A stretch of DNA of 64,000 bases from Alphaproteobacteria bacterium (GCA_964291415.2 OZ219920.1:672001-736000), one strand, 5' to 3'. Numbered from the stretch's first letter, positions 4,771-58,163 are shown. Translations and numbers: made by a program. Notes: generated by a model not told the origin, from the sequence alone.

Positions 4771-5115
4771 CGTTGTCCGGATGTCGGGGCCGCTGGATGT
4801 TCGGCAGCCGCGATCACTTTGCACCGCCTCGGGTCGAGGGGGTGCCGAGAGCAGGAGTTCGACATGTGCGGATCGTCGCCAATTGCAGTTCAACCGGCTT
4901 CGGAACCGGAATGCCACTCACAACGATTGTGCCCGGGAGGCGGAAGGCCTGTGGGCGAGGGTGAGGGTGGCCCAGTCGTCGATGACGGTGGTGGCGCGGG
5001 GCGCGTATCCGGCCTGGCGGTATGCTTCGAGGACGGGGGCGGACTGGTGTTCGAGAAAGCCTGACAGGATGACGGTGCTGGCGTTGATGGCGGGGGCCAT
5101 GGCGATGAGGGGGCG
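4603..5115. repeat. Diverged direct repeat, copy B (includes the functional prmA 3' end)
   Basis: Homologous to 3360-3915. Confidence 0.9.
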
Positions 5116-5727
5116 GGCCAGGATGTTGGCGATGACGAGATCGAGGTGTGCCGGGGAGAAGGCGCCGAAGGCGCTTGCGCAGACGAGGTGGATGCGGTCG
5201 GCGAGGCCGTTCTCCGCGATCTGGCTCTGGGCAAAGGAGAGGGCGAGGGGGTCGTTGTCGACGGCGATGATGTGGCAGTCCCACAAGACGGCGGCGGCGA
5301 TCGAGAGAATGGCCGACCCGCATCCCATGTCGAGGACGGTGCCAGGCGATGGGTCGAGGGCGGCAAGGGCCTTCAGGCACCCGGCGGTGCTCGGGTGCTC
5401 GCCGGTGCCGAAACCGGCCCCGGCCCTCATGCGGATGAGGTGCCGAGATGTGTCCGCCGGGTCATCGCCGTGAACGATGGTGAAGGGCCCGACGACACGG
5501 GGCGGAAAGGAGCGGATGTTGTCCGCGACCCAGTCTTTCGCCGGCAGTTCATGGAGGGAGGGCGTGACGCCGAGATGTGTCTCGAGGTGCCGGCGCGCAC
5601 GTTCGGCTTCCTCGCGGCTGGCGAAGAGGGCCTGGACGCTCGAGCCGAAGAGGGACAGCGCCAGGGGCTCCAGGTCCTCGAGGAGGTCGTGTGCTCCTTC
5701 GTGCTCCGCCTCGAGCTGCCAGGTCAT
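4918..5727 (-). CDS. prmA: 50S ribosomal protein L11 methyltransferase
   Basis: GFGTGEHPST, VLDMGCGSAILSIAA, ANILARPL, ILSGFL motifs; coupled to uvrD. Confidence 0.92.
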   Translation of the reverse strand: MTWQLEAEHEGAHDLLEDLEPLALSLFGSSVQALFASREEAERARRHLETHLGVTPSLHELPAKDWVADNIRSFPPRVVGPFTIVHGDDPADTSRHLIRMRAGAGFGTGEHPSTAGCLKALAALDPSPGTVLDMGCGSAILSIAAAVLWDCHIIAVDNDPLALSFAQSQIAENGLADRIHLVCASAFGAFSPAHLDLVIANILARPLIAMAPAINASTVILSGFLEHQSAPVLEAYRQAGYAPRATTVIDDWATLTLAHRPSASRAQSL

Positions 5728-17454: not shown

Positions 17455-17485
17455 CGTTCGACCGGACCGTCAGGGACCGACATGA

Positions 17486-17740
17486 TGGAGGGCTTCTGTT
17501 GCCCGGTGCCCTCCAAACCGCGCTTGTCGCTCAAGCGGCGACAGCGAACGCCTCATTGTCGTTGGCGTTTGTGTGATTGACCCGATAACGGCGGTATCAT
17601 ACCGGGCGAAAATCGCACCTTTACCACGCACGTCGATCCTGGTTCGCCCCCATAGGTTTATGGTGGAGGCGGCGGGTACTGCCCCCGCGTCCGCAACGTC
17701 TATTCCGAACGACGTTTATCGCCATAGCCCGGCGCACCGG
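17486..17740 (-). ncRNA. ssrA: tmRNA, circularly permuted two-piece type; tag (A)ANDNEAFAVAA*
   Basis: Acceptor piece ends ...CCCGCCGCCTCCACCA at 17661; short spacer; coding piece starts GGGGGCG at 17651 (7-bp stem with G3.U70); tag frame 17566-17531; GGAGGGC/GCCCTCC 3' hairpin. Confidence 0.95.
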
Positions 17741-17749
17741 GCAACCCGA

Positions 17750-17779
17750 CATATAGGCGCAACGCCGCTGCCATGCAAC
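17750..17779 (-). promoter_or_regulatory. Putative sigma70 promoter of ssrA
   Basis: Minus strand TTGCAT-N16-CTATAT just upstream of the acceptor piece; decayed in the right repeat copy. Confidence 0.55.
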
Positions 17780-17829
17780 CCTTTTCCGGGCGACCCCGCA
17801 GCAAGCGGATGCGAAGAGCCTCAGCCGCC

Positions 17830-43654: not shown

Positions 43655-44291
43655 CCGATGCGCCGTCGAGGTGATCGGTCCAGAAGGCCAGGGCGAGCAG
43701 CGGCTCGTTCTCCGTTCGCGTGGAGTGCGGCAGACCCGAGTGGTGAAAGATGAAGCTGCCGGGCGGGCGGGTCACCCAGTCCTCATTGCCGCGCCGCCAA
43801 CGGGCAGTGCCGGCCACGACCCAGTAGACCTCGGGGGCCGGGTGCGCGTGAGGCGGATAGAGCACGCCCGGCCCCTGGATCGTGAAGAAGGCCGAGAGAC
43901 GACCCGAGACGACCAGGCCGCGTGGCCCGACAAGCTCCGCGTAGGCATACTCGGCGCGGAACGCGTCATAGCGTAGATCGCCGGCGAGTTCGGGGTATGC
44001 AGCGCCCCAGGCAAGCGCGTCGCGCGCCGCGAGCAGCGCCTCGGTCACGGCGGCGGGATCGTCCGCAGAGGGGTTCGGCAGGTCGTCGAGGTGCGCGCAT
44101 GGCGGCTGCTCGCTTGGCACGGACAGGCGTCTTTCTGGCGAGTCCAAGACAACGCTCGCAGCGGCCTCAAGGTAGTCGCTGGCTTCATCCCCGCGTGTTG
44201 CCCCCGCCCGCCATGCAGCGACCACGGCCGCGATCAGGCGCTCGACGCGGGCCGCTGCCGGGAGTGAAGTCACCGCGCCGTCGGCGGTCAT
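43623..44291 (-). CDS. DMSP lyase-family (DddQ/DddL-like) cupin
   Basis: YAYAELVGPRG, PGVLYPPHAHPAPEVYWVVAG, HHSGLPHSTRTENEPLLALAFW. Confidence 0.75.
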   Translation of the reverse strand: MTADGAVTSLPAAARVERLIAAVVAAWRAGATRGDEASDYLEAAASVVLDSPERRLSVPSEQPPCAHLDDLPNPSADDPAAVTEALLAARDALAWGAAYPELAGDLRYDAFRAEYAYAELVGPRGLVVSGRLSAFFTIQGPGVLYPPHAHPAPEVYWVVAGTARWRRGNEDWVTRPPGSFIFHHSGLPHSTRTENEPLLALAFWTDHLDGASVMVGDEAPRT

Positions 44292-44367
44292 GATCACCTC
44301 GCCTTTCAAGGGAGGGCCATGGTGGCAGATCGGCGTGACGGCGGGCAAGGGAGAAGAGATCGTGTCG

Positions 44368-46398
44368 ATGAGACCCGTGTCGTCACTGCCCGTGAAGATA
44401 CGCCAGATCGAACATTGCTGGATCCCGATGTCGGACGGCGTGCGGCTGGCCGCGCGAATCTGGCTCCCCGAAGACGCCGAGGCGAGACCGGTACCGGCGA
44501 TCCTGGAGTACATCCCCTACCGCAAGCGCGACGCGATCAGTGAGCGCGACGAGACCATCCATCCCTACTTCGCCGGCCACGGCTATGCCGCGGTGCGCAT
44601 CGACATCCGCGGCTCGGGCGACTCCGAGGGGCTGCTGCTGGGCGAGTACCTGAAGCAGGACCACGACGACGCGCTCGAGGCGCTCGACTGGATTGCCGCG
44701 CAGCCCTGGTGCGACGGCAAGATCGGGATGATGGGACTGAGCTGGGGTGGCTTCGAAGCGCTGCAGGTTGCCGCGCGACGGCCGCCGGCGCTGAAGGCCG
44801 TGATCTCGGTGGGCTCGGTCGACGATCGCTACGCCGACGACATGCACTTCAAGGGCGGCTGCCTGCTGAACGACAACATGTACTGGCACTCGCTCTTCTT
44901 CTCGCTGCTCTCGCGGCCGCCCGACCCGATGATCGTGGGTCAGCAGCGCTGGCGCGAGATGTGGTTCGATCGCCTGGAGAATCTGATCAACCCCATCCAG
45001 GAATGGCTGCCACACCAGCGGCGTGACGCCTTCTGGCGCCACGGCTCGGTGCGCGAGGACTACGGGGCGATCCAGTGCCCGATCTACCTGGTGGGCGGAT
45101 GGGCCGACAGCTACATCAACTCGGTGCCGAGCCTGCTGTCGGGTCTGAAGGTGCCGCGCAAGGGGCTGATCGGACCCTGGGGCCACCAGTACCCGCAGGA
45201 CATGGCGCCACCTGGTCCCTGGTTCGGCTTTCTGCAGGAGGCCCTGCGCTGGTGGGGCCACTGGCTCAAGGGCATCGACACCGGGATCATGGATGAGCCC
45301 ATGTACCGCGCCTGGATGGCGGAGGCGATGCCGCCCGACCCCGGCCTGCCCGAGACCCGGGGCCGCTGGATCGCCGAGCCCGTCTGGCCGCGTTCCGACG
45401 GCCATGCCCGGACCTGGCACCTCGCACCGGGGGGCCTCGCCGACAGGCCCGAGGAAGACGCGGCGCTGACGCTGAGTTCGCCCCTTGATATCGGCACGTC
45501 GAGCGGCTGCCTCTGCCCCTACGGTCTGGGCTCTATCGGCCACGAACTGCAGACGGACCAGCGCGTTGACGACGGCAATTCGCTGTGCTTCGACACGCCA
45601 CCGCTTCGCGAACGCGTCGAATTCTTCGGCGCACCGGTGGTGGAGCTTGAGCTGTCGGTCGACCGGCCGGTAGCGCAAATCTCGGTCAGGCTCAACGACG
45701 TCGCTCCCGACGGCACCTCGACCCGGGTCACCTTCGGCCTGCTCAACCTGACCCATCGGGACGGGCACACCGATCCGCAGCCGATGGAGCCCGGCCGGCG
45801 TACCCGCATCCGGTTGGCGCTCGACAACATGGCCTATGCCTTCCTGCCCGGCCACCGCATGCGGCTTGCCGTTGCGACGGGCTACTGGCCGGTGGCGTGG
45901 CCAACGCCCGAGAAGGCCATGCTCACGCTCCACACGGGCGAGAGCACCCTCGAGGTGCCGGTGCGGAAGCCACGCCCCGAGGACGCCGGCTTGCGTCCGT
46001 TCGAGGAGCCGGAGTCGTCGGAGCCGGAAGCGCGCACCATGCTGGTCGACGCGAGCCGGGCGCGCAGTGTGCGCCACGACGTGGTGACCGGCATCACCAC
46101 GCTTGAGGCGCACAAGCACCGCGGCTGGTTCCGCATCGAGAGCCACGGCCTTGAGATGAGCAGCGAAGGCACCGAGCGCTACAGCGTGCATCGAAGCGAC
46201 CCCTCGAGCGCAACCGGCGAGACCGAGCAGCTCGTACTGATCGGCCGTGGCGACTGGCGTCTGAGGTTGGAGACCAGGACGCGGATGACGTCGGACAAGG
46301 AGGCCTTCCACATCCATTCCGAGATCGACGCGTTCGAGGACGGGGAGAAGTCCTTCACCCGTTCCTGGGACGCCTCGGTGCCGCGCGACCTGGTGTGA
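44368..46398 (+). CDS. CocE/NonD-family hydrolase (peptidase S15)
   Basis: WIPMSDGVRLAARIWLP, EYIPYRK, DIRGSGDSEG, GLSWGG, GGWAD, GPWGH. Confidence 0.92.
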   Translation: MRPVSSLPVKIRQIEHCWIPMSDGVRLAARIWLPEDAEARPVPAILEYIPYRKRDAISERDETIHPYFAGHGYAAVRIDIRGSGDSEGLLLGEYLKQDHDDALEALDWIAAQPWCDGKIGMMGLSWGGFEALQVAARRPPALKAVISVGSVDDRYADDMHFKGGCLLNDNMYWHSLFFSLLSRPPDPMIVGQQRWREMWFDRLENLINPIQEWLPHQRRDAFWRHGSVREDYGAIQCPIYLVGGWADSYINSVPSLLSGLKVPRKGLIGPWGHQYPQDMAPPGPWFGFLQEALRWWGHWLKGIDTGIMDEPMYRAWMAEAMPPDPGLPETRGRWIAEPVWPRSDGHARTWHLAPGGLADRPEEDAALTLSSPLDIGTSSGCLCPYGLGSIGHELQTDQRVDDGNSLCFDTPPLRERVEFFGAPVVELELSVDRPVAQISVRLNDVAPDGTSTRVTFGLLNLTHRDGHTDPQPMEPGRRTRIRLALDNMAYAFLPGHRMRLAVATGYWPVAWPTPEKAMLTLHTGESTLEVPVRKPRPEDAGLRPFEEPESSEPEARTMLVDASRARSVRHDVVTGITTLEAHKHRGWFRIESHGLEMSSEGTERYSVHRSDPSSATGETEQLVLIGRGDWRLRLETRTRMTSDKEAFHIHSEIDAFEDGEKSFTRSWDASVPRDLV

Positions 46399-47039
46399 TG
46401 TTCTACGAGCCGGCACAGGGCCACGGCCTGGAACTCGACCCCTTCAAGAGCCTGGTCGTACCCCGTCCGATCGGCTGGATCACCACGCTCGACACCGAGG
46501 GGCGGGTGAACCTTGCGCCGTACAGTTACTTCAACGCCGTGGCCGACGACCCGCCCGCCGTGATGTTCTCCTCCTCGGCAGGCGAAGGACCCGACCGCCG
46601 GAAGGACTCCTGGCGCAACGCCGAGGCGACGGGCGAGTTTGTCTTCAACCTGGCGACCTGGGAGCTGCGTGAGGAGGTCAACCAGACCTCCGACGCCGTG
46701 CCCAGCGACGTCGACGAGGCGGCGCTGGCGGGCCTCGACATGATTCCGTCGCGGCTTGTCAAGCCCCCCCGGGTTGCACGCTCTCCCGTACACCTGGAGT
46801 GCCGCTGGCTGAAGACGGTGATCGTGCCGCAGAATGGCGACTATGCGCCCGGGGACAACGGGCTGGTGCTGGGCGAGGTGGTCGGTGTGCACATCGACGA
46901 GACGATCATGGCGAACGGGCGCGTCGATCTGTCGCGGATTCGCCCCATCGCACGGCTCGGTTATGCGCAGTATGCCGTGGTCGACACACTGTTCCGCATG
47001 GTCCCGCCCTGGGTGACGAGTGATCCGGACAAGGAGTGA
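46395..47039 (+). CDS. Flavin reductase-like FMN-binding protein
   Basis: PRPIGWITT, NLAPYSYFN, KDSWRNAEATGEFVFN, SPVHLEC, IARLG. Confidence 0.88.
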   Translation: MMFYEPAQGHGLELDPFKSLVVPRPIGWITTLDTEGRVNLAPYSYFNAVADDPPAVMFSSSAGEGPDRRKDSWRNAEATGEFVFNLATWELREEVNQTSDAVPSDVDEAALAGLDMIPSRLVKPPRVARSPVHLECRWLKTVIVPQNGDYAPGDNGLVLGEVVGVHIDETIMANGRVDLSRIRPIARLGYAQYAVVDTLFRMVPPWVTSDPDKE

Positions 47040-47049
47040 AGGCCCGGCC

Positions 47050-47877
47050 ATGGCCGACCCGGAGCAGATCGCCGGGCGCTTCGAGCGGGACGGTTTCGTG
47101 TTCCCGGTTCCGGTGATTTCGCGCGCGGCGGCCGACGGGGCGCGCCGCCGCTTCCTGGAGACGCGGCGGGAGGCCGAGCGCGATCCCCGCATCGCCGACT
47201 ACCTCTCCTACAAGGCCAACGTGGCCTACCGGTGGGTCGACGAGTTCGTGCACAGGTCCGCTCTGCTCGACGCCGTGGCGGCGGTGTTGGGCCCGGACTT
47301 GCTGCTGTGGAGCTGCTCCTTCGTCTGCAAGGATCCGCGCTCGTCGGGCCGCTACTCCTGGCACCAGGACGCCACCTACTGGGGCATGACGCCTCCGGTG
47401 GGACTGACGGTCTGGCTGGCGCTGGGCGACGTGGGCCCGCACAACGGCGGCATGAGCTTCATCCCCGGCGCCCACACGTGCGGCCAGCTCGCCCATACCA
47501 ACACCTTCGCTGCCGACATCATGCTGCCGCGCGGCCAGCAGATCCGTGAGCTGCCCCACCCCGAGCGTGCGACGGCGCTTCAGCTCGCTTCGGGCGAGGC
47601 CTCGTTCCACGGCGTCTTCACGCCCCATGCCTCGGGACCCAATGGCAGCGACGACTATCGCGTGGGCTGTGCCATGGTCTTCATACCGCCGCACGTGAAG
47701 AACCAGACGCTGCGCGAGTCCGCGATGCTGGTGCGCGGCACCGACCGCCACGGGAACTTCGAGCTCGAGCCGCGGCCCAGGGCCGACCTCGACGACGACG
47801 CGGTCGCCGCGCACGGCACGGCAATGAGACGTATGGCGACCTGGCAAAACGAACAGAAGCTCACGAAGCGGGCGTGA
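47050..47877 (+). CDS. Phytanoyl-CoA dioxygenase (PhyH)-family Fe(II)/2OG enzyme
   Basis: FERDGF, WHQDATYW, TVWLAL, PHASGPN..DYR. Confidence 0.9.
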   Translation: MADPEQIAGRFERDGFVFPVPVISRAAADGARRRFLETRREAERDPRIADYLSYKANVAYRWVDEFVHRSALLDAVAAVLGPDLLLWSCSFVCKDPRSSGRYSWHQDATYWGMTPPVGLTVWLALGDVGPHNGGMSFIPGAHTCGQLAHTNTFAADIMLPRGQQIRELPHPERATALQLASGEASFHGVFTPHASGPNGSDDYRVGCAMVFIPPHVKNQTLRESAMLVRGTDRHGNFELEPRPRADLDDDAVAAHGTAMRRMATWQNEQKLTKRA

Positions 47878-47888
47878 GGGAGGACGGC

Positions 47889-48731
47889 ATGGGCGGCAAG
47901 TATCTGAAGGGACGGAGCGCCTGGGTTACGGGTGGTGCCACCGGCATGGGGCGCGCCTGCGCCCTTGCGCTCGCGGAAGCCGGTGCCGATGTCGCCATCG
48001 GCTCGCTGACGTCCAAGGTGAGCAATCCTCGCGTCAGGGGCGAGGCCGCCCTGGTGCTGGATGACGGCGAGCTTGAGGCGACGGGCGGCGAGATCGAATC
48101 CCGGAACGTGAAGGCACTCGCCCTGCCGCTCAACGTCTGTTCGGACGAGTCCTGCGCCATGTTCTTCGAGGCCACGGTGAAGGCCTTCGGCAAGGTCGAC
48201 ATCCTGGTCAACGCGGCAGGCGGTTCGGCCCACCACCCGATGATCGACCATCCCGACGAGCTCTGGCTGCGTACCATCGACGTCAACCTCAACGGCCCCT
48301 ACCGAACCACCAGGCTCTGCTTTGCGGGCATGGTTGAGCGGGGCTGGGGACGTATCGTGAACCTGGCGACGACCGGCGCGCGGGTCGGACACGCGGGACA
48401 TGCGGCCATGTGCGCGTCGAAGACCGGCCTGCTCGGTCTGACCCGCTGCGTCGCGCTCGAGGGCGCGCGCCACGGCGTGACCTGCAACGCGATCAACCCG
48501 GGAAGCGTGAAGACACCGCATGTCGTGCGTTCGGCGCTGCCAAACAAGATCGCGATGCTGGGCATTGACCGCTCTCTCGAGGACTACCTCGACGACACCG
48601 TGAGGACGGTGCCGCAGAACCGCTGGATCGAAGCCGAGGAGATCGGCGCCTTCGCAGCCTTCCTGTGCAGCGAAGGCGCTCGCGGCATCACGGGCGAGGA
48701 TATCCAGATTTCTGGCGGCGCGCACTGGTAG
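47889..48731 (+). CDS. SDR with beta2 insertion and MCASK in place of YxxxK
   Basis: TGGATGMG, VNAAG, MCASKTG, NAINPG; paralog of 35122-35976. Confidence 0.85.
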   Translation: MGGKYLKGRSAWVTGGATGMGRACALALAEAGADVAIGSLTSKVSNPRVRGEAALVLDDGELEATGGEIESRNVKALALPLNVCSDESCAMFFEATVKAFGKVDILVNAAGGSAHHPMIDHPDELWLRTIDVNLNGPYRTTRLCFAGMVERGWGRIVNLATTGARVGHAGHAAMCASKTGLLGLTRCVALEGARHGVTCNAINPGSVKTPHVVRSALPNKIAMLGIDRSLEDYLDDTVRTVPQNRWIEAEEIGAFAAFLCSEGARGITGEDIQISGGAHW

Positions 48732-48818
48732 GCAGCGACGGTCGAACACCGCTTCGTCGGCCGCACCGACGACGAGAGGCCCGGCTGACCCGGGTGCCTG
48801 CTCGACCACATGTTCGAC

Positions 48819-49233
48819 GGCGGCGACGCTGCGCAGGGCGCCGTCAGCCAGCAGTCCATGGCTGATGGAATCAATCATCGCTCGACCGGACCGTCAGGGA
48901 TCGACATGAGGAAGGGCTTTGTTCCCCGGTGCCCTCCAAACCGCGCTTGTCGCTCACGCGGCGACAGCGAACGCCTCATTGTCGTTGGCGTTCGTGCGAA
49001 TGACCCGGTGACAGCGGTATCTTACCGAGCGATAGCCGGACCTTTGCGACGCACGTCGATCCAGGTCCCCCATCGATCCATGGTGGAGGCGGCGGGCAAT
49101 GTCCCCGCCTCCGCAAAGTCCGTTCCGGACGACGCTCTTCGCCGTAGCCCGGCCACCGGGCAACCCGTCACAACGGCGTAGAGCGGCCTCCACGCCACGC
49201 CTTTTCGGGCAACCCTACAGCAGCCGGATGCGA
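48819..49233. repeat. Right, decayed copy of the sspB'-ssrA-promoter repeat
   Basis: Encodes MIDSISHGLLADGALRSVAA (intact sspB: MNDSIHYGLLVDGALRSVVA) and then diverges; homology runs through the tmRNA and promoter region. Confidence 0.92.
48908..49160 (-). pseudogene. ssrA: Second, degenerate permuted tmRNA copy
   Basis: Keeps CCGCCTCCACCA (49081) and tag ANDNEAFAVAA* (48989-48954); has a 3-nt deletion in the 5' acceptor strand (GGGGGACC vs GGGGGCGAACC), altered T-loop, weakened 3' hairpin and decayed promoter. Confidence 0.85.
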
Positions 49234-49500
49234 GTGGCTTCTCCTGTCATCGACACGTTGACATGCACGGAACGCGCTTTGCCTCGTACAGCGCATTGCG
49301 GTCACAGTTCGTGTGGTTCTCCTGTTCCCTGAAGAAGAGGCTGTTGTTCACGTCCGGCGATGATACCGCGTTCGGCATCCGAACCGTGCAGGCTTCACTC
49401 TTCGCCCGACCTCAGTCCCGAACGTTGCATCGCTGGAGTCTTGCGGGTCAATGGCATACTTCCCATGCTACAAGGATACCATGAGTTGACGAGGAGTGTG

Positions 49501-50715
49501 ATGGCTGAGCCCGGCCTGATTGACCGCATCCAACTTGGCGAAGATTCGACACTGGAGTTCAAACGCGTCGAAATCAGCGGACAACGCGTCAGAGATCCGG
49601 ACCGGGGTGCGTTCGCTGATGAACTTGCCGCGATGGCGAACGGGCGAGGCGGGACCGTGATCCTGGGAGTGGACGACAAGAGTCGGGAGGTGCTTGGCAT
49701 TGCGCTGAAGGATCTGGATGTTGTCGAGGGTTGGGTCCGTGAGATTTGCAACGATTCGGTGAGGCCGGCGCTCGACGCCGACATCCGCAAGCTGAGAATG
49801 AAGACCGCTGCTGGCAACCGGGTTCCGATTATCCGAATTGATCTGGCACGCAGTCTGTTCATTCACAAGAGTCCCGGGGGATACTTCCGTAGAATTGGTA
49901 GTTCCAAACGCGAATTGACTCCGGAAGCACTCACCCGGCTGATTCAGGAACGCACCTACAGTCGTCTCATTCGGTTCGACGAAACGATCGTCCCTGGAAC
50001 AGGACGCGCGGATTTGCACTTTGCGCTTACTCGAAGATTCACCCGGAACGACCCTACGGATGACACACTGCGCAAACTCCATATCACGTCGAAGGATGAT
50101 GACGGGGCCGAACGTCTCACGATTGCGGGTGTGCTGCTCTGCACGCCGGAGCCGCAACGCTGGATGGCGCACGCGTACGTGCAGGCTGTCAGCTATGCCG
50201 GAGACCGTACTGATGTTGAGTATCAGACAGATTCGCGGGACATCGGCGGACCACTCGACGAACAGGTTGCCGAAGCGTTGCATTTCGTGCGACGGAACAC
50301 ATTGGTACGGGCAACAAAGAAAGGGCCACGGTCGGACAGACCACAGTTCAGCGAACGGGCGGTTTTCGAGGCTCTCGTGAACGCCGTCGCGCATCGTGAC
50401 TACTCAATCGCCGGCTCACGGATACGTCTTCACCTGTTTGGGGACCGGCTCGAGCTCTATGTTCCCGGTGCGCTCGCCAATACGCTGACTCCGGACAGCC
50501 TGCACCTGAGGCAGGCCAGCAGGAACGAACTCATCGTGTCCTTGTTGGCGCGTTGCCCCGCACCAACCGGACTTGGTCGTTCCCGCTTGATGGATCGCCG
50601 AGGTGACGGTGTGCCAATCATTCGCAAGGAATGTGAACGCTTGACCGGCCAGCTTCCCGAGTACAGCGTGCTGGACGATAGTGAACTGCGTCTCGTGGTT
50701 CGGTCGGCGAGCTAA
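49501..50715 (+). CDS. Schlafen/AlbA_2 domain + HATPase_c_4 protein
   Basis: GEDSTLEFK, AMANGRGGTVILGVDD, RRIGSSKR; EALVNAVAHRDYS, DRLELYVPG, RNELI, RGDGV; no C-terminal HTH. Confidence 0.88.
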   Translation: MAEPGLIDRIQLGEDSTLEFKRVEISGQRVRDPDRGAFADELAAMANGRGGTVILGVDDKSREVLGIALKDLDVVEGWVREICNDSVRPALDADIRKLRMKTAAGNRVPIIRIDLARSLFIHKSPGGYFRRIGSSKRELTPEALTRLIQERTYSRLIRFDETIVPGTGRADLHFALTRRFTRNDPTDDTLRKLHITSKDDDGAERLTIAGVLLCTPEPQRWMAHAYVQAVSYAGDRTDVEYQTDSRDIGGPLDEQVAEALHFVRRNTLVRATKKGPRSDRPQFSERAVFEALVNAVAHRDYSIAGSRIRLHLFGDRLELYVPGALANTLTPDSLHLRQASRNELIVSLLARCPAPTGLGRSRLMDRRGDGVPIIRKECERLTGQLPEYSVLDDSELRLVVRSAS

Positions 50716-50813
50716 GTGCTGCATTCGCCTGCCATGCATGCTCCCGTGGCAGTCTCTGTTCGCGTAGGCTGTTCGGTTGCAAGCGGAATGCGAACGACCA
50801 AAGTGCCGGGGCG

Positions 50814-51509
50814 GTGTCAGTGACCGAAAGCATGCAGATTGTATGTCTTGCAAATTCCCGAAAACTGTCGGGACGATGTGTTGCCGGACGGGAGTGGTCG
50901 GCTGATGGAGGGACAGGACGCTGGATCCGCTTCGTCAGCGAACGAGAAAACCAGGAAGTGTCGGAGTACGAGCGCCAGTACGAAGACGGAAGTGATCCCG
51001 GGATTCTCGATATCATCGAAGTGCCAGTGCTCTCGCCACAGCCGGAAGGATACCAGACCGAAAACTGGTTGCTCGATCCGGATTACTATTGGGAAAAGGC
51101 CGGTGTTTATTCATCATTTGATCTTCCCGATCTGATAGATCCGGTTGAGCCTCTTTGGATTGACGGTTACAGCACATTTCATGGTTGTAATGACACGATT
51201 CCCCTTGAAGAAACGGCAAAGGTGGCCGGATCCCTGCGGTTGATTGCGGTCGAGGAACTTACTATCGAGGTGTTTTCGCCCGGCGAAGCCTTTGGGAACT
51301 CCAAGCGGCGCGTACAGGGCCAGTTCATGCATGCGGGTCAGGATTATGCGTTCTGGGTAACTGACCCCCTGTATGAGATGCGATACCTTGCGAAGCTTGA
51401 TGGCACATACGGGATTGGCGAGTGCCATCTCACCATCAGTCTTGGGGAACTGTACCGGAACTCCGCATTTAAGCTCATCGCCGCCATCATCGAACCTGAT
51501 GGGCAATAG
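50814..51509 (+). CDS. Dual OB-fold domain protein
   Basis: IVCLANSRKLSGRCVAG, WIRFVS, LDIIEVP, YQTENW, SLRLI, Y.FWVTDP, LTISLGE, FKLIAAII. Confidence 0.8.
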   Translation: MSVTESMQIVCLANSRKLSGRCVAGREWSADGGTGRWIRFVSERENQEVSEYERQYEDGSDPGILDIIEVPVLSPQPEGYQTENWLLDPDYYWEKAGVYSSFDLPDLIDPVEPLWIDGYSTFHGCNDTIPLEETAKVAGSLRLIAVEELTIEVFSPGEAFGNSKRRVQGQFMHAGQDYAFWVTDPLYEMRYLAKLDGTYGIGECHLTISLGELYRNSAFKLIAAIIEPDGQ

Positions 51510-51513
51510 AATC

Positions 51514-52149
51514 GTGGGTACGAGCAAGAAAACCATTCTGACGATCGGTCACTCCAGCCATACGTTAGAGGACTTCTTCAAGCTTCTGACCCTGCACGGC
51601 GTCACCGTGCTCGCAGATGTGCGCTCTGCCCCTTACAGCCGCTTCAATCCTCAGTTCAATCGCGAAGGGTTCGTCCGGAGTCTCAAGACTTCTGGATTCA
51701 AGTATGTGTATCTCGGACTCGAGCTAGGTGGGCGATCCGACGACCCTTCCTGCTACGAACGCGGCCGTGTTCGCTACGATCTAGTTGCGCACACACCACT
51801 GTTTCGTAGCGGACTGGAGAGGGTTATGCTCGGCGCAGACCGATACTGCATTGCACTGATGTGCGCCGAGAAGGAACCGCTCGACTGCCATCGGGCGCTT
51901 CTCATTGGACACGAACTGGACAAGAGTGGTGTTGAAGTTGCGCACATTCTGGCCGACGGAACGCTTGAACCGCACGCGAGCACGATGGGTCGCCTGCTTG
52001 ATGAGCTCGGGTTCGAGTCCGAATACGATTTGTTCAACCGACACCGAACACGTGACCAACTCGTAGTGGAAGCGATTACACAACAAGCGAAGCGCGTTGG
52101 GCACGTCAATGAACGAGTGAGTGACGTGGCAAGGCAGAAGGAGCCATGA
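51514..52149 (+). CDS. DUF488 family protein (long form)
   Basis: ILTIGHSSH, LADVRSAPYSRFNPQFN, ELGGR, ALMCAEKEPLDCHR. Confidence 0.9.
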   Translation: MGTSKKTILTIGHSSHTLEDFFKLLTLHGVTVLADVRSAPYSRFNPQFNREGFVRSLKTSGFKYVYLGLELGGRSDDPSCYERGRVRYDLVAHTPLFRSGLERVMLGADRYCIALMCAEKEPLDCHRALLIGHELDKSGVEVAHILADGTLEPHASTMGRLLDELGFESEYDLFNRHRTRDQLVVEAITQQAKRVGHVNERVSDVARQKEP

Positions 52150-52610
52150 AAGTATCGACGATAGGTTTCACCCGCAAATCCGCGCAGCGGTTCTTCGAAC
52201 TTCTGCGCGAGTCAGGCACTAGGCGCATCGTGGACGTGAGACTCCGCAACGGCTCCCAGCTTGCCGGGTTCGCCAAGAAGGGTGATCTCGCCTGGTTTGC
52301 GCGCGAACTGTGCGGCATAGACTATGTCCATGTGCCGGACCTCGCACCCACGAACGAGCTGTTGGGCGCGTATCGACAGGGACGAATCTCCTGGGACGCC
52401 TACGAAGAGCGGTTTGTCGACCTGATGAAGGCCCGCAGGATCGAATCCGTTCTGCCTGGGGACGTTGTGGACAATGCCTGTCTGCTGTGCAGCGAAGACC
52501 AGCCGCATCATTGTCACCGTCGGCTCGTCGCCGAGTATCTGAAGGAACATTGGGGCGATGTGGAGATCGAGCACCTGGGTCTCAAGAAGGATGCGCGCCG
52601 GTCCGCCTGA
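52146..52610 (+). CDS. DUF488 family protein (short form)
   Basis: STIGFTRKSAQRFF, VDVRLRNGSQLAGFAK, LAPT, CLLCSEDQPHHCHRRLVAEYL; ATGA overlap. Confidence 0.9.
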   Translation: MKVSTIGFTRKSAQRFFELLRESGTRRIVDVRLRNGSQLAGFAKKGDLAWFARELCGIDYVHVPDLAPTNELLGAYRQGRISWDAYEERFVDLMKARRIESVLPGDVVDNACLLCSEDQPHHCHRRLVAEYLKEHWGDVEIEHLGLKKDARRSA

Positions 52611-52661
52611 CCGTGTTGGGACAGTCCTTGCGCCGTGAGGACGTGGTCTGCGTCGACAGGC

Positions 52662-53870
52662 TCAGCCTGCCGTCCCGAGGGGCTCGATACAATCCGGTGC
52701 GTCCCAGCCGAATGTGTGCAAGTCCTTCCAAGGGAGCAGTCTGCCCGTTCTCCGGTGCTGGGCGCCGTCGCCGCCATAGACGACGAGGGTGGAGCACCCA
52801 GGGGCCGAATTGACGAGGTGTTGGCGAATGCGGTTGCCACCTTGGAACAGGCTTGATGACGGCGTCATGGATGCCTTTGCCTCGACAACTGCGATGCCAC
52901 CCGGATGTTCGACAATCAGATCGGCCTCGGCCCCATTCCGGTCGCGGTAGTGCGAAATGCCCCTGGTCTCGCCCTGATTGGCCCGATGCTTGACAATCTC
53001 CGACACGACCCAGGTTTCGAAGATCGGGCCGCGCAAGGGGTGTGCTTGGAGCTGGTCAGGATTTCGGATGCCCAATAGCCAGCAGACCAGCCCGGTATCG
53101 CAGAAATGCAGCTTCGGCGTTCTCACCAGTCGCTTGCGAACATTCGTGTGAAAGGCTGGCAGGCGGAAGGCGATGAAGCTGGTTTCAAGTATGCTCAGCC
53201 AGGCCTTCGCGGTCGGCTGCGAGATGGCGCAGTCTCCCGCCAGTGATGAGAGGTTGAGCAGTTGTGCCGTTTGACTGGCACAAAGCGTGACGAAACGCTG
53301 GAATGTCGAAAGGTCGCCCACATTGGCGATCATCCGCACGTCGCGCTCGATGTAGGTCGCGACGTAGGAGCCAAGCCACTCCGGGACATCATGACCTTCA
53401 TCGAAAATTCGCGGGTAGGAGCCGGCAAAGAGAGTCTCGTCGAGAGTCTCTGGATGCTTCGCAAATCGAATCGTCTCGCCCCGTGTCAACGGGAACAGGT
53501 TGCAAAGCGCCGTCCTTCCGGCAAGCGACTGGCTGACCGATTGGAGGAGCGAGAGATTTTGAGATCCTGTGAGAATCCAGCGCCCGGGCTTGGGGTCGGT
53601 GTCGATGATGCCCTGCAGGTAGGAGAACAACCCGGGCACCTTCTGAATCTCGTCGAGAACAGCGCCGCAGGGAAACTGTGCGAGGAAAGCTCGCGGGTCT
53701 TCCATGGCAAAGGCCCGCACGTCCAGGTCTTCCAGCGACTGATACGGATGTTGTGGAAAGAGGGTGCGGCACAACGTGGTCTTGCCGCTCTGCCGGGGCC
53801 CGGTCAGCGTGATGGATGGCCAAGTCTGCGCGGCCTGAATCAGCCTTGGTGCAATGTCGCGTGCGATCAT
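52662..53870 (-). CDS. AAA_14 ATPase with DUF4143 C-terminal domain
   Basis: GPRQSGKTT, LDEIQK, LTGSQ, SLAGR, TPKLHFCDTG, GPIFETWV, YRDRNGAEADLI..EAK. Confidence 0.9.
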   Translation of the reverse strand: MIARDIAPRLIQAAQTWPSITLTGPRQSGKTTLCRTLFPQHPYQSLEDLDVRAFAMEDPRAFLAQFPCGAVLDEIQKVPGLFSYLQGIIDTDPKPGRWILTGSQNLSLLQSVSQSLAGRTALCNLFPLTRGETIRFAKHPETLDETLFAGSYPRIFDEGHDVPEWLGSYVATYIERDVRMIANVGDLSTFQRFVTLCASQTAQLLNLSSLAGDCAISQPTAKAWLSILETSFIAFRLPAFHTNVRKRLVRTPKLHFCDTGLVCWLLGIRNPDQLQAHPLRGPIFETWVVSEIVKHRANQGETRGISHYRDRNGAEADLIVEHPGGIAVVEAKASMTPSSSLFQGGNRIRQHLVNSAPGCSTLVVYGGDGAQHRRTGRLLPWKDLHTFGWDAPDCIEPLGTAG

Positions 53871-54077
53871 GATGCGAAACGTAACAAAGTCACAGGCCAA
53901 ATCAAGATAGGATTTTGAAATGGCCTTGGCTTGCGACTCACCCGGAGCCGCTACGGTCTCCACGCCTGTGGATCGCGAAGTCGAGCGACGGAAGGGCCGT
54001 GCCGGGCCGAACGCCGACAGTGGCAGTGGGCGCTGTTGTCTGTGGAGTTCGCCTGCCGGCTCGTGTATGCCCTTGGC

Positions 54078-54989
54078 ATGGGCATCACGCAGGAACAGGC
54101 GCGGGAGATCAGCGAACAGCGGTCGCGCTCCGAATCGACGCGACGGGTGGTGTCGCCGGGGCTCGAGGCGCTGCTCTACGAGCCAATCGAGGTGCTCGAT
54201 CACGGGTTCGTGCGCGTCATCGACTACCTGGGGGATGACAGCGCCATCGTCCAGGCGGCACGGGTGTCCTACGGGACGGGCACACGGTCGGTGCGTGGCG
54301 ATGCGGCGCTCATTGCCTACCTGATGCGCCACCGCCACACGACGCCCTTCGAGATGTGCGAGATCAAGTACCACGTCAAGCTGCCGGTGTTCGTGGCCCG
54401 CCAGTGGATTCGCCACCGCACGGCCAGCGTCAACGAGGTCTCGGCGCGGTACTCGATTCTCGACCGCGAGTTCCATATCCCGGCGCCTGACAACCTGGCC
54501 CGCCAGTCGACGCAGAACCGGCAGGGACGGAGCGACATTCTCGAGGGCGACGAGGCCGCGAGGGTGCTGGAGATTCTCAAGGACGACGCCAGCCGCGCCT
54601 ATGGACACTACGAAGAGTTGCTCGACGACGAAGGGCCTGGCCTTGCCCGCGAACTGGCGCGCATCAACCTGCCGCTCGGCATCTACACCCAGTGGTACTG
54701 GAAGACCAATCTTCACAACCTGCTTCACTTCCTCGCCCTGAGGGCGGATTCCCATGCCCAGCACGAGATCAGGGTCTATGCCGAGGCGATGCTGGAGACG
54801 GTGAAGGCCTGGGTTCCGCTGGCCCACGAGGCCTTTGTCGAATGCCGGCTTGACGGCGCGGAACTGACGGCGAAACAGCTGGCGGCGGTGCGCCGCATGC
54901 TCAACGGCGAGACGGTGACGGCGGAAACAAGCGGGCTGTCGCGACGGATGTGGGACGAACTGCAGGCCGTGCTGGAGGACCGTCCCTGA
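54078..54989 (+). CDS. thyX: FAD-dependent thymidylate synthase
   Basis: [48 protein letters not shown]. Confidence 0.96.
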
Positions 54990-55013
54990 CGGACGGCGGG
55001 CCGGACCGGCCGC

Positions 55014-56084
55014 TTATTCGATGACGATGCGCGGGCCTTCCGGGCGGGCTCCCGGCAGGCTCTCCAGGACCGCCGAGGCCACCTCCTGATAGGCGTTGGC
55101 AATGGCGCCCCCGGGTTCGGCGGCGACAATGGGAAGACCGCTGTCCGATGTCTCGCGAATCCTGACGTCGAGAGGAATCTCGCCCAGGAAGGGAACCCCC
55201 AGCCTGGCGGCCTCGTGCCTTGCGCCGCCATGGGCGAAGACTTCGGTGCGGTGACCGCAGGCCGGACAGGCGAAATAGCTCATGTTCTCGACAATGCCGA
55301 GGATGGGGACATCCACCTTGCGGAACATGTTGAGTCCCTTGCGGGCGTCGATGAGCGACAGATCCTGCGGTGTGGACACGATCACGGCGCCGGCGAGCGG
55401 CGTCCTCTGGGTGAGCGAGAGCTGGACGTCGCCGGTCCCCGGCGGCAGATCGACGATCATGATGTCGGCCTCGCCCCACGCCACCTGGCGCAACATCTGT
55501 TCCAGGGCGCTCTGCACCATTGGGCCGCGCCACACCATGGGCTGGTCCTCTCCGATCAAGAGGCCGATCGACATGGTCGCGATACCGTGGGCCATCTTCG
55601 GATAGAGCAGTGTCCCGTCAGTCTCCGGCTTGCCCGTCAGTCCGAAGAGGCGGGGCGCCGAAGGGCCGTAGATGTCCGCATCAAGGAAAACGACCTTGCG
55701 GCCCCCGGCGGCCAGGGCCAGCGCCAGATTGGCCGCGGTCGTCGACTTGCCGACGCCACCCTTGCCGCTGGCCACCGCCACGATGGACTTGACGCCGTCG
55801 ATGCCTCCGGCGGGCTCTGCCGGGGCGGCCTGATCGCGGTGAGCGGTCATGACGACGCTGGACGAGAGCACTCCGGGCAGGGCGCGAATGGCGTCTTCTG
55901 CCGCCTTGCGCACCGGCTCGTACGTGTGGCCGCGATCAGCCGGCACCTCCATGACGAACCCGACGTTGCCGTCCTTGACGACGAGATTGGAGACGAGACC
56001 CTCGTCGCTGATCGGTCGGCCGCTCCCGGGATCGATGATCCCGCGAAGGGCCGCTTCAACTGTCTCTTGCGTGACTCGTGCCAT
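55014..56084 (-). CDS. apbC: Mrp/ApbC Fe-S cluster carrier ATPase
   Basis: VASGKGGVGKST, DADIYGPS, WRGPMV, DLPPGTGD, ENMSYFACPAC. Confidence 0.93.
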   Translation of the reverse strand: MARVTQETVEAALRGIIDPGSGRPISDEGLVSNLVVKDGNVGFVMEVPADRGHTYEPVRKAAEDAIRALPGVLSSSVVMTAHRDQAAPAEPAGGIDGVKSIVAVASGKGGVGKSTTAANLALALAAGGRKVVFLDADIYGPSAPRLFGLTGKPETDGTLLYPKMAHGIATMSIGLLIGEDQPMVWRGPMVQSALEQMLRQVAWGEADIMIVDLPPGTGDVQLSLTQRTPLAGAVIVSTPQDLSLIDARKGLNMFRKVDVPILGIVENMSYFACPACGHRTEVFAHGGARHEAARLGVPFLGEIPLDVRIRETSDSGLPIVAAEPGGAIANAYQEVASAVLESLPGARPEGPRIVIE

Positions 56085-56207
56085 CGCTCGTCGTCCTTCC
56101 CGCGTTGCAGGCAACACGCAGGTGACATATAACGCGGGGACCCTTGGCAACAACCCATAAAGTGCGGAACCCGGCTCACCTGGATCCGCCAGGAAGGCAG
56201 CGAACCC

Positions 56208-57263
56208 ATGTCCTGGAATGACGGTGGTGGAGGTGGATGGGGCGGCTCCGGCGGCGGCCCCTGGGGACGGCGTCCCTCGGGCGGCGGCGGCCGCGAATTC
56301 GAGGAACTCGTCCGCAACATGCAAAAGAAGGGCCGGCGATTCCTGCCCGGCGGTTTCGGCGGAATCAGGGGAATCCTGATCATCCTCGTCGTGCTTGTCG
56401 CCGTGTGGCTGGCGAGTGGAATCTACCGGGTCGACACCAACGAGCAGGGTGTCGAGGTTGTCTTTGGACGCTGGGTCAACACGACGACACCCGGCCTCGA
56501 CTACAACTGGCCGGCGCCCGTCGGACAGGTCTTCACGCCGACGGTGACGGAGATCCAGCAGTTCACGATCGGCACGACGCCCAACCAGAGCCTGATGTTG
56601 ACGGGTGACGAGAACATCATCGACGTCAAGTTCGTCGTGAAGTGGAAGATCGACGACGCCGGAAAGTTCCTGTTCAACATCTCCGATCCGGAGGGAACGA
56701 CACGCAACGTGGCCGAGAGCGCGATGCGTCAGGCCATCGGCCGCACCCCGTTGGCGACGGCTCTTGCCGAAGGCCGGGCGGAAGTCGAACAGAAGACACT
56801 GGAGTTGATGCAGACGATGCTCGACGAGTACGGTGCCGGAGTCGAGATCCGTCAGGTCGAACTGCAGAGCGTCGATCCGCCTGCGGCGGTGATCGACGCC
56901 TTCCGCGATGTCCAGGCTGCCCGGGCGGACCAGGAACGCTCGATCAACGAGGCCCAGGCCTACCAGAACCAGATCGTGCCGGTCGCCCGTGGTGATTCGC
57001 AGCGCATGATTCAGGAGGCGGAGGCCTACAAGGAGCAGGTGATCAACACGGCCCAGGGCGATGCCGCCCGCTTCATGTCGGTCTACAACGAGTACATCTT
57101 GGCCGAGGACGTGACGGAGCGGCGCATCTACCTCGAGACCATGGAAACGGTGCTGCGGGACATGGAGAAGATCGTCATCGACACCGGGGCCATGGACGGC
57201 CAGGGGGTCGTACCCTACCTGCCGCTCGACCAGCTGCGGCGAAGCAGCGACGAGGAGGGCTGA
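56208..57263 (+). CDS. hflK: FtsH modulator HflK
   Basis: Gly-rich N-terminus, MLTGDENIIDV, AESAMR, DAFRDVQAARAD, RIYLETME. Confidence 0.95.
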   Translation: MSWNDGGGGGWGGSGGGPWGRRPSGGGGREFEELVRNMQKKGRRFLPGGFGGIRGILIILVVLVAVWLASGIYRVDTNEQGVEVVFGRWVNTTTPGLDYNWPAPVGQVFTPTVTEIQQFTIGTTPNQSLMLTGDENIIDVKFVVKWKIDDAGKFLFNISDPEGTTRNVAESAMRQAIGRTPLATALAEGRAEVEQKTLELMQTMLDEYGAGVEIRQVELQSVDPPAAVIDAFRDVQAARADQERSINEAQAYQNQIVPVARGDSQRMIQEAEAYKEQVINTAQGDAARFMSVYNEYILAEDVTERRIYLETMETVLRDMEKIVIDTGAMDGQGVVPYLPLDQLRRSSDEEG

Positions 57264-57266
57264 GCC

Positions 57267-58163
57267 GTGAACATCAAGATCATTCTCTCGGTCATCGGCC
57301 TTGCCGCCGCCCTGGTGGTCGGTTCCATGTCGGTGTTCACCGTCGCCGAATACGAGCAGGGGATCGTTGTCCAGTTCGGTGACCCCAAGCGGGTGGTGAG
57401 CGAGCCCGGTCTCAATTTCAAGCTTCCGTGGCAGGACGTCATCTACTACGAGAAGCGTGTCATCCAGGTCGACGGAGAGCCCGAACAGGTGACTGCGTCG
57501 GACCAGAAGCGCCTGGTTGTCGACGCCTTTGCCCTCTACCGCATCACGGATCCCCTGAAATTCAAGAACTCGGCGATCACCATCGACCGTTTCGAGGGAT
57601 TCATGCTCAGAACGCTGACCGGCACGTTGCGCCAGCACATCGGCCGGGTGCCGCTGGTCGATGTGGTTTCCGGGGAGCGCGAGACGTTGATGAACGCGAT
57701 TCAGGAATCCCTGGTCAGGGCGACCGAGCAGTACGGCATCGAGGTGACGGACGTGCGCATCAAGCGCACCGACCTTCCCCAGGAAAACAGCCAGGCCATC
57801 TACCGGCGCATGCAGACCGAGCGCGAGCGTGAAGCAAGCGAGATCCGCGCGGAGGGCGAGGAGCAGTCATTGCGCATCCGCGCCGAGGCCGATCGGACCC
57901 GCACCGTGCTGTTGTCGGAAGCAAGGCGCGATTCCGAAATCCTGCGTGGCGAGGGAGACGGAGAAGTGGTGCGCATCTTTGCCGAAGCCTTCGGCCGGGA
58001 TGTCGACTTCTTCACGTTCTATCGCACCATGCAGGCCTACCGTGAGGCGCTCAACTCCACGGACACCACGCTGGTGCTGACGCCGGAGGGAGACTTCCTG
58101 CGTTTCCTGACGAGTTTCGAGGGTCTCCAGATGAGCCCTCGTTCTGACACATTCGCCGAGTAA
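57267..58163 (+). CDS. hflC: FtsH modulator HflC
   Basis: PGLNFKLP, DQKRLVVDAF, DVRIKRTDLP, RMQTERERE, FFTFYRTMQAY. Confidence 0.95.
   Translation: MNIKIILSVIGLAAALVVGSMSVFTVAEYEQGIVVQFGDPKRVVSEPGLNFKLPWQDVIYYEKRVIQVDGEPEQVTASDQKRLVVDAFALYRITDPLKFKNSAITIDRFEGFMLRTLTGTLRQHIGRVPLVDVVSGERETLMNAIQESLVRATEQYGIEVTDVRIKRTDLPQENSQAIYRRMQTEREREASEIRAEGEEQSLRIRAEADRTRTVLLSEARRDSEILRGEGDGEVVRIFAEAFGRDVDFFTFYRTMQAYREALNSTDTTLVLTPEGDFLRFLTSFEGLQMSPRSDTFAE

Follow-up and report, generated by a model that had tools for sequence, protein, structure and literature searches.

Prokaryotic Schlafen proteins have been reported to protect against phage by tRNA cleavage, with E-x4-(E/D)-x-K as their catalytic motif and with the domains fused to the nuclease acting as sensors (PMC13056530). 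The two-domain unit made of a Schlafen nuclease and a GHKL ATPase, for which the name Schlatpase is used, accounts for 58.6% of 103,533 prokaryotic Schlafen proteins; most prokaryotic Schlatpases are described as small and stand-alone, with no further domain or with a short HTH (helix-turn-helix) (10.64898/2026.05.29.728809). In SLFN-pAgo, according to the same source, binding of ATP to the GHKL domain leads to tetramerisation and to an active nuclease, and the tRNase of human SLFN11 is said in the Discussion of PMC13056530 to be switched on by single-stranded DNA (ssDNA). In addition, 145 systems predicted by 'guilt-by-embedding', the PDC systems, were added to PADLOC (Payne, Hughes, Fineran & Jackson 2024, bioRxiv 10.1101/2024.01.29.577857), the name PDC-M45 standing outside the main text of that work. 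In this study, we report a four-gene cassette in which a Schlafen-GHKL gene precedes a PDC-M45 trio. It lies at positions 49501-52610 of a stretch of 64,000 nucleotides from an Alphaproteobacteria bacterium (GCA_964291415.2 OZ219920.1:672001-736000), this whole stretch being referred to below as the window.

The three downstream genes of the cassette encode a dual-OB protein (DuOB) and two DUF488 proteins, one long and one short. They matched components A, B and C of PDC-M45 in PADLOC (E-values of 1e-69 to 8e-88), as adjacent, co-oriented genes in matching order, and the A-B-C gene order was the same in related loci. The trio had been called uncharacterised in an earlier note on this DNA, made from the sequence alone; that description had to be given up once the PADLOC search returned a named system, PDC-M45 itself being a candidate only. 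The DuOB-DUF488-DUF488 trio is already catalogued as such a candidate, and the new part is the fourth gene, the Schlatpase, which stands upstream here and in most of the closest loci. The literature searched, with supplementary tables outside the search, contained nothing joining 'Schlafen' to 'DUF488', nor 'DUF488' to 'dual OB'. The coupling of the Schlafen gene to the trio is real, conserved and, within that literature, apparently not in print.

Linkage of the Schlafen gene to the PDC-M45 trio

A DuOB scan with one genome per species gave 144 confirmed relatives, and the best 80 of them (58-78% identity, 10 phyla) were analysed. In 66 of these 80 loci, a near-full Schlafen homolog (61-92% identity) stood directly upstream in the same orientation; in the others the upstream Schlafen gene was truncated or interrupted (seven loci) or absent (six), or the locus was too short to tell (one). 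All four genes were present at nearly their full length in 47 loci of this set. The arrangement was mostly as tight as in an operon, since the distance from the Schlafen stop codon to the inferred DuOB start was at most 26 nt in 57 of the 66 loci, with the genes overlapping in 15, and longer spacers were confined to nine loci, the window among them. The divergence of the Schlafen protein also tracked that of DuOB (Mantel r 0.72 for the pairwise identities, with none of 999 permutations above 0.17), a correlation which is one of co-inheritance and not of interaction, as related sequences share their history. The link between the Schlafen gene and the trio, which the earlier note had supposed, is supported by these data. 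In one Paracoccaceae locus (L038:4793-7899) the Schlafen gene was split by a DDE_Tnp_1_4 transposase (7.6e-143) and the downstream trio was intact.

A DuOB tree was rooted with three distant Schlafen-less DuOBs. Its 81 in-group rows formed one clade (98 in the Shimodaira-Hasegawa-like approximate likelihood ratio test, SH-aLRT) with the Schlafen-less rows scattered within it, and six changes explained the presence and absence of the Schlafen gene, one gain followed by repeated loss being the simplest reading. The tree mixed the phyla with one another, even at branch lengths as short as 0.015, and this indicates recent transfer between phyla. In this regard, two loci labelled Binatia and Syntrophobacterales (L035 and L036), with branch lengths of about 0.015, correspond either to a very recent transfer between phyla or to a mis-binned shared contig.

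It must be considered that the Schlatpase and PDC-M45 could be two independent defence systems, each working alone and travelling together because the islet is inherited as a block. Six of the 80 did have the trio without a Schlafen gene, as did all four distant genomic loci and all three plasmid records, the latter carrying either the trio or a DuOB-DUF488-DUF4326 variant. Of 400 other genomes sampled in the phylum, five had DuOB, and in the four loci with a clear DuOB, DUF488 genes stood alongside, with no Schlafen homolog in the available sequence within 1.5 kb. Schlatpases 48-56% identical to that of the cassette were found in 15 of the sampled genomes of the phylum, none of which had DuOB, and independence would also agree with the stand-alone character of most prokaryotic Schlatpases. 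The operon-type packing described above speaks for a joint unit, as does a linkage kept through 60-70% protein divergence and 10 phyla, although the 80 loci are one clade of non-independent kin and their count of 66 may reflect a single ancestral joining that was spread by transfer. In the window itself, the 98-nt spacer between the Schlafen stop codon (TAA, 50713-50715) and the GTG start of DuOB at 50814 may mean that the two genes have separate promoters.

The nearest sister clade of Schlatpases (L105-L115) argues against independence. Its members were located just downstream of a gene of about 475 codons in 11 of 11 fetched loci, and the approximately 475-aa product matched AAA_21 in 7 of 10 cases tested and, in both cases tested, aligned with the C-terminal half of the Ppl model of PADLOC (1e-58 and 1.7e-54). 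The pair has the appearance of a two-gene system, the Schlafen nuclease standing in for the N-terminal domain of Ppl itself. This lineage of Schlatpases is tied to a partner time and again, but not to the same one in each clade: DuOB-DUF488 in one and a Ppl-like ATPase in the other.

A complex of the Schlafen protein with DuOB was also predicted, each protein being entered as a 67-row alignment and three controls being included. The contact score was 0.52 (0.52, 0.51 and 0.55 in the single runs) versus 0.01 for the best control, with the verdict 'weak support'; the runs shared at least 94% of their contacts and the partner had a predicted local distance difference test (pLDDT) of at least 86. 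Of 157 solved complexes, 116 reached the mark, as did 2 of 215 mismatched pairs, and the scores of up to 0.60 comprised 18 of the 157 solved complexes together with both passing mismatches; 0.52 falls in a band where a contact is graded as more likely false than true, except where it was to be expected beforehand. With the genomic linkage as prior, the modelled contact adds a little, and no interface is demonstrated. Considering the packing, the sister clade, this prediction and a Schlatpase lacking a built-in sensor domain (see below), we regard two independent systems as unlikely, although far from negligible.

The same loci bear on a toxin-antitoxin-like addiction module, in which the Schlafen tRNase would be a toxin restrained by the DuOB-DUF488 proteins, or its damage would be repaired by them. 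Active Schlafen nucleases are reported to arrest growth (PMC13056530; 10.64898/2026.05.29.728809) and the genes are tightly coupled. Yet six loci hold Schlafen and DuOB without either DUF488 gene, the Schlafen gene remaining intact, and it is also intact in a same-genus locus (L102) where DuOB appears frame-shifted. Moreover, the trio is found much more widely than its link to Schlafen, which points to a function of its own. An addiction module is very improbable in our opinion.

Proteins of the cassette

The Schlafen protein has 404 residues, with SLFN_AlbA_2 at residues 14-139 (53 bits, cut-off 25.3) and HATPase_c_4 (PF13749, GHKL) at residues 305-397 (55.9 bits, cut-off 26). In an alignment of 67 sequences, the nuclease motif E14-x4-E19-x-K21 was kept in at least 90% of them, and N294, H298, R299, D300, Y301, D365, R367, G368 and G370 were invariant, residues which we take to be those of the N and G1 boxes of the GHKL fold. 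The GHKL match stopped 7 residues short of the stop codon, leaving no C-terminal sensor or HTH tail, and a role as transcription regulator through such a tail was discarded on this ground. Judged by its sequence, the gene is a minimal Schlatpase, that is, a Schlafen nuclease plus a GHKL ATPase without a sensor domain. Its Schlafen profile matched, in the PDB, the RNase lobes of mammalian SLFN8/14/11/5/12 and of CbCash (E-values of 9e-5 to 2e-3 for SLFN11 chains), and its PADLOC match was confined to the GHKL part of the SLFN-pAgo models. Two more SLFN_AlbA_2 genes were found in the genome from which the window comes (G000:C4:303375-304562 and G000:C1:938368-938736), one of them 47% identical to the cassette Schlatpase and contained in a 605-aa open frame.

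The cassette protein shares with the prokaryotic Schlafen effectors (the Schlatpase of SLFN-pAgo, the HisKinase class of pSlfn and the CRISPR-associated Cash) the same two Pfam domains in the same order, with the motif and the GHKL residues kept. It differs from them in that no Argonaute, Ig-like, DUF262, Csx15 or HTH sensor is present on the polypeptide, the candidate sensor being the three downstream genes. With human SLFN11 it has in common a homologous Schlafen RNase lobe, the coupling to an ATPase and, in the model proposed below, an ssDNA binder; in contrast, the ATPase of the cassette is of the GHKL type and not an SF1 helicase, and DNA binding would reside on a separate tandem-OB protein. 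The parallel with SLFN11 is an analogy of logic, not an orthology of systems.

The DuOB protein matched PF22557 with 220 bits (cut-off 27) over model positions 1-210 of 210, and residues 5-229 matched positions 3-226 of 230 of the PADLOC model PDLC04653 (PDC-M45A, 7.9e-88). Its predicted structure (pLDDT 90.7) was all-beta with two barrels. The Foldseek matches were weak and all fell on tandem-OB DNA binders (CST, RPA, Teb1, POT1-type and HIN; E-values of 3e-4 to 1e-2, template modelling (TM) scores of 0.2-0.4), and the sequence profiles of DuOB and DUF488 found no match among solved structures. Among longer DuOB proteins, RecQ-type domains were present in 106 of 120 listed, DuOB being in these 106 the C-terminal domain of an otherwise complete RecQ helicase, and DinG-like helicase domains were present in three of the 120; one listed protein had an SMC/ABC-type ATPase fused to DuOB. 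The RecQ-type and DinG-like fusions suggest DNA as the ligand of DuOB, and the most likely predicted form of it is single-stranded or forked DNA, or DNA ends. The proposal of the earlier note that damaged or modified single-stranded nucleic acid is recognised goes beyond the indication of DNA given by these fusions and stays inferential.

The RecQ-DuOB helicases belong to the same DuOB family (33-44% identity); they differ from the cassette in that DuOB is there the C-terminal part of the helicase, whereas the cassette encodes it as a free-standing protein downstream of a Schlafen nuclease-ATPase. Fusions of DuOB to DUF488 were found in five listed clusters, and the one inspected had a clean junction; such fusions suggest that DuOB and the long DUF488 protein associate physically. 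Two apparent single-polypeptide fusions of Schlafen and DuOB, P0001 (644 aa) and P0006 (747 aa), were rejected. In both, the Schlafen alignment was lost at about residue 360 and an Arg/Gly/Pro-rich stretch, of which P0006 had several, replaced the conserved C-terminus. Each is one sequence on one contig, and they look like frameshift read-throughs which give no support for a fusion.

Both DUF488 proteins were well above the cut-off of DUF488 (PF04343; 80.7 bits for the long and 82.6 bits for the short one, cut-off 22.2), and the short one also passed DUF488-N3a (PF22751; 50 bits, cut-off 27). In PADLOC, the long protein matched PDLC04657 (PDC-M45B) at 2.6e-76 and the short one PDLC04658 (PDC-M45C) at 1e-69, the matches of each to the model of the other being far weaker (1e-6 to 3e-13). 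With 24% identity between them and different PADLOC models, the two are indeed of different subtypes, as had been proposed. The motifs TIG and DVR were found in both, with the residues of T-I-G, D-x-R and C-x-E-x5-C-H-R invariant, and C117, E119, P122, C125, H126 and R127 were invariant in 23 aligned sequences spanning both paralogs. The active-site motifs put forward in the earlier note are present in both proteins, and only the spacing in the Cys motif, given there as x4, had to be corrected to x5.

The model of the long DUF488 protein (pLDDT 92.9) had a C-terminal helical extension. The best Foldseek match was a DUF442 putative phosphatase (E-value 1.2e-3, TM 0.36-0.46), and VIA gave tetrapyrrole methylases (Z 8.6, first half), laforin (Z 8.3) and KAP (Z 8.0), which are middling fold scores in a range (Z 7-8.6) that can mean a common arrangement. 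On these models, the long protein resembles a Cys-phosphatase-fold enzyme of the PTP or dual-specificity type and would be a putative member of that group. Both fold groups are reportedly placed in one rhodanese-phosphatase superfamily, the DUF488 clade of which is said to have been predicted for DNA-end processing; enzymes of the superfamily have also reportedly been proposed to act on RNA termini. The predicted role of the DUF488 proteins would be the processing of phosphate-bearing nucleic-acid termini or of a nucleotide-derived signal. The place of the second enzyme need not always be taken by DUF488: on a plasmid of Acinetobacter pittii (L118, NZ_CP139284.1, 10 kb; positions 5013-6701) DuOB and one DUF488 gene are followed by a DUF4326 gene replacing the second, which suggests that a protein of a related family can take this slot.

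Genomic setting and distribution

The four genes, all on the + strand, fill positions 49501-52610, and the features of the locus are provided in Table 1. They lie in an islet (49000-54000) with a guanine plus cytosine (G+C) content of 52-60%, both flanks having 65-73%. The earlier note had described four co-oriented genes in an AT-rich block beside a decayed tmRNA copy, and had named their domains; the gene calls, the G+C content, the Rfam scores of the tmRNA copies and the Pfam hidden Markov model search agreed with it in all these points. Its tight coupling of DuOB and the two DUF488 genes can likewise be read in the sequence. The DuOB stop codon (TAG, 51507-51509) is separated by a 4-nt gap from the GTG start of the long DUF488 gene at 51514, an alternative ATG at 51499 giving instead an 11-nt overlap with DuOB, and the two DUF488 genes overlap by ATGA (52146-52149). 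For the Schlafen gene, an ATG further upstream (49360) would add 47 residues, and the homologs align from 49501.

Table 1. Features of the cassette locus and of the two tmRNA copies in the window
Feature	Coordinates	Strand	Evidence and remarks
Schlafen gene	49501-50715	+	Pfam SLFN_AlbA_2 6.2e-14 and HATPase_c_4 4.4e-15
DuOB	50814-51509	+	Pfam PF22557 4.1e-65; PDC-M45 component A; predicted DNA binder
Long DUF488	51514-52149	+	Pfam DUF488 (PF04343) 1.7e-22; PDC-M45 component B
Short DUF488	52146-52610	+	DUF488 (PF04343) 4.5e-23, DUF488-N3a (PF22751) 4.5e-13; PDC-M45 component C
AAA_14 + DUF4143 ATPase	52662-53900	-	Pfam DUF4143 1.7e-49, AAA_14 3.2e-25; PADLOC PDC-S01 (PDLC04790) 4.6e-100
Degraded tmRNA duplicate	48909-49163	-	Rfam alpha_tmRNA 107 bits; left edge of low-GC islet
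Intact tmRNA gene	17484-17782	-	Rfam alpha_tmRNA 242 bits

On the right of the cassette, the AAA_14-DUF4143 ATPase shares the low-GC islet and is followed by thyX. A homolog of this ATPase was found within 8 kb of DuOB in only one of the 80 related loci (L045), and for this reason the gene is placed outside the cassette. None of the five islet proteins had a model in NCBIfam, and ARAGORN found no tRNA or tmRNA over 44000-58000. A palindrome, GTTCGGCATCCGAAC (GTTC-N7-GAAC), is located at 49371-49385, 116 nt 5' of the Schlafen start; it is probably not an operator of the cassette because it is missing in the closest relative, L001. A shared operator or SOS box 5' of the Schlafen gene was sought and rejected, each 8-mer being common to at most 10 of 67 upstream regions.

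The tmRNA link was correct only in part. The decayed copy is real: it spans model positions 38-355 and is a full-length duplicate of the two-piece alphaproteobacterial gene, 31 kb from the intact copy. Identity between the two copies is about 80% in the 5' two-thirds and about 97% in the last 115 nt or so plus some 30 nt downstream. The site, in contrast, is not a classical 3'-end integrase island, since the cassette is found 5' of the degraded copy, where the gap between tmRNA and thyX is variable, and no integrase was found among 22 open reading frames (ORFs) tested between the two copies. These 31 kb contain a peptide ABC transporter, a dimethylsulfoniopropionate (DMSP) lyase, a dimethylformamidase-like gene, an X-Pro dipeptidyl peptidase and short-chain dehydrogenases/reductases (SDRs), and in one same-genus genome the right-hand part of the segment stands beside a DUF488 remnant.

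The tmRNA-thyX gap was compared in 12 same-genus genomes. It was empty (294 bp) in G410 and nearly empty in G405 (1.3 kb, with none of these genes), and it held the full cassette, at 83% nucleotide identity, in G401. The short DUF488 gene was the only one of them in the gap of G404 and G412, and G406 had a fragment of the long DUF488 gene, the short DUF488 gene and the ATPase. A copy at another location was found in G402, with DuOB in two reading frames. The cassette is accessory and is decaying within the genus. The ratios of nonsynonymous to synonymous substitution (dN/dS) with respect to G401 were 0.07 for Schlafen, 0.13 for DuOB, 0.28 for the long and 0.12 for the short DUF488 gene; these low values imply purifying selection, all four genes being maintained where they are present.

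In order to describe the neighbourhood, every fourth of the 80 loci was taken and the 158 ORFs flanking these 20 loci at up to 5 kb were run through PADLOC, with E-value thresholds of 1e-10 and 1e-15 and with no matched control. Matches were obtained in seven of the 20. One locus had a type I restriction-modification (RM) system and AbiU, and another had Iet, PDC-M24 and a type I specificity subunit; three more had methyltransferases only, and one had a weak match. In L078 (5105-13100), one of the seven, an Hma system (E-values of 0 to 1e-262) has a Schlafen-less DuOB-DUF488-DUF488 trio inserted between its HmaB and HmaC, which is the kind of context from which the PDC candidates came, and the trio of an Agrobacterium plasmid adjoins CBASS. 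An enrichment of defence neighbours is suggestive on these data, and a nucleic-acid or conflict role of the cassette, as the earlier note had it, is plausible. As regards DarTG, with which the cassette shares the character of a small nucleic-acid-directed conflict module, the cassette has no ADP-ribosyltransferase or macrodomain, and none of the five islet proteins matched DarT or DarG in PADLOC or Pfam. Carriage of DuOB by phages or viruses was discarded: 50,697 phage records yielded no relative, and neither did IMG/VR with two peptide patterns (44 pattern matches, none confirmed).

Part of this evidence would also agree with a DNA repair or fork-processing module, in which DuOB would act on ssDNA gaps or forks, the DUF488 proteins would clean blocked ends and the Schlafen-ATPase would be an accessory nuclease, or a stress brake as SLFN11 is after damage. 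The RecQ fusions of the longer DuOB relatives, together with the three DinG-like ones, are compatible with repair as well as with defence; the Cys/Arg site of the phosphatase-type fold is intact; 13 of the 20 sampled loci had no PADLOC neighbour; and the phage and IMG/VR scans gave no relative. Nevertheless, the distribution is rare and patchy, as seen in the 400 genomes of the phylum, the cassette is of low G+C content in a high-GC genome, and a single genus shows empty, nearly empty, full and decayed sites. To this must be added the transfer between phyla, the trios embedded in Hma or adjoining CBASS, Iet and RM systems, and the lack of a shared upstream motif. In attention to the above, a repair module is considered improbable.

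Proposed function and meaning

The reading that we tentatively prefer, while giving it somewhat less than even odds, is that of a horizontally spread accessory cassette in which a DNA-sensing and end-processing module would control a tRNA-cutting effector. As far as sequences allow, the PDC-M45 trio has in this clade captured a sensor-less Schlatpase. According to this proposal, DuOB and the DUF488 pair would detect or process a DNA species of an invading or replicating element. This would license an ATP-driven oligomerisation of the Schlatpase, a step for which the fold model of a Schlafen-DuOB contact offers weak support. By homology to tested relatives, the E-x4-E-x-K nuclease would then cut tRNA, translation would halt and the outcome would be a defence of the abortive-infection type.

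The ssDNA-switched tRNase of SLFN11 is the parallel that we draw for the logic of the cassette. In a more specific version, which is possible but rather doubtful, the cassette would be a split bacterial counterpart of the SLFN11 logic: the tandem-OB protein would read ssDNA or ends of an invader or a stalled fork, the DUF488 proteins would edit the terminus or a phosphorylated signal, and the Schlatpase would pass to an ATP-bound, tRNA-cutting oligomer.

Several points weigh against the preferred reading of a controlled tRNA-cutting effector. Some have been given with the data: the loci with the trio but no Schlafen gene or with Schlafen and DuOB but no DUF488 gene, the spacer of the window, the single clade behind the count of linked loci, the band in which the contact score falls, the weak or middling fold matches of DuOB and DUF488, the RecQ fusions, and the sampled loci without a defence neighbour, for which there was no matched control. 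In addition, the term 'PDC-M45' was not found in the literature searched. It must be noted also that, in the work of Perez Taboada et al. (2026), two Schlafen-HisKinase systems were picked, one of eight constructs failed synthesis and the defenders were DUF262 and Ig-like fusions; defence by the Schlafen-HisKinase architecture is not demonstrated in that work.

If the coupling were false, the locus would be another copy of a catalogued candidate beside a common defence gene. If the more specific version is true, PDC-M45 would be a DNA-sensing module and not an effector, and minimal Schlatpases would be effectors plugged into interchangeable sensor operons, either DuOB-DUF488 or a Ppl-like ATPase. 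Given that most Schlatpases are small proteins with no further domain or just a short HTH and that PDC-M45 is widespread, the hard-wired clade gives both of them one testable hypothesis, and a compact four-gene construct to go with it. The sister clade wired to a Ppl-like ATPase suggests, in the same sense, a modular effector with a swappable sensor operon.

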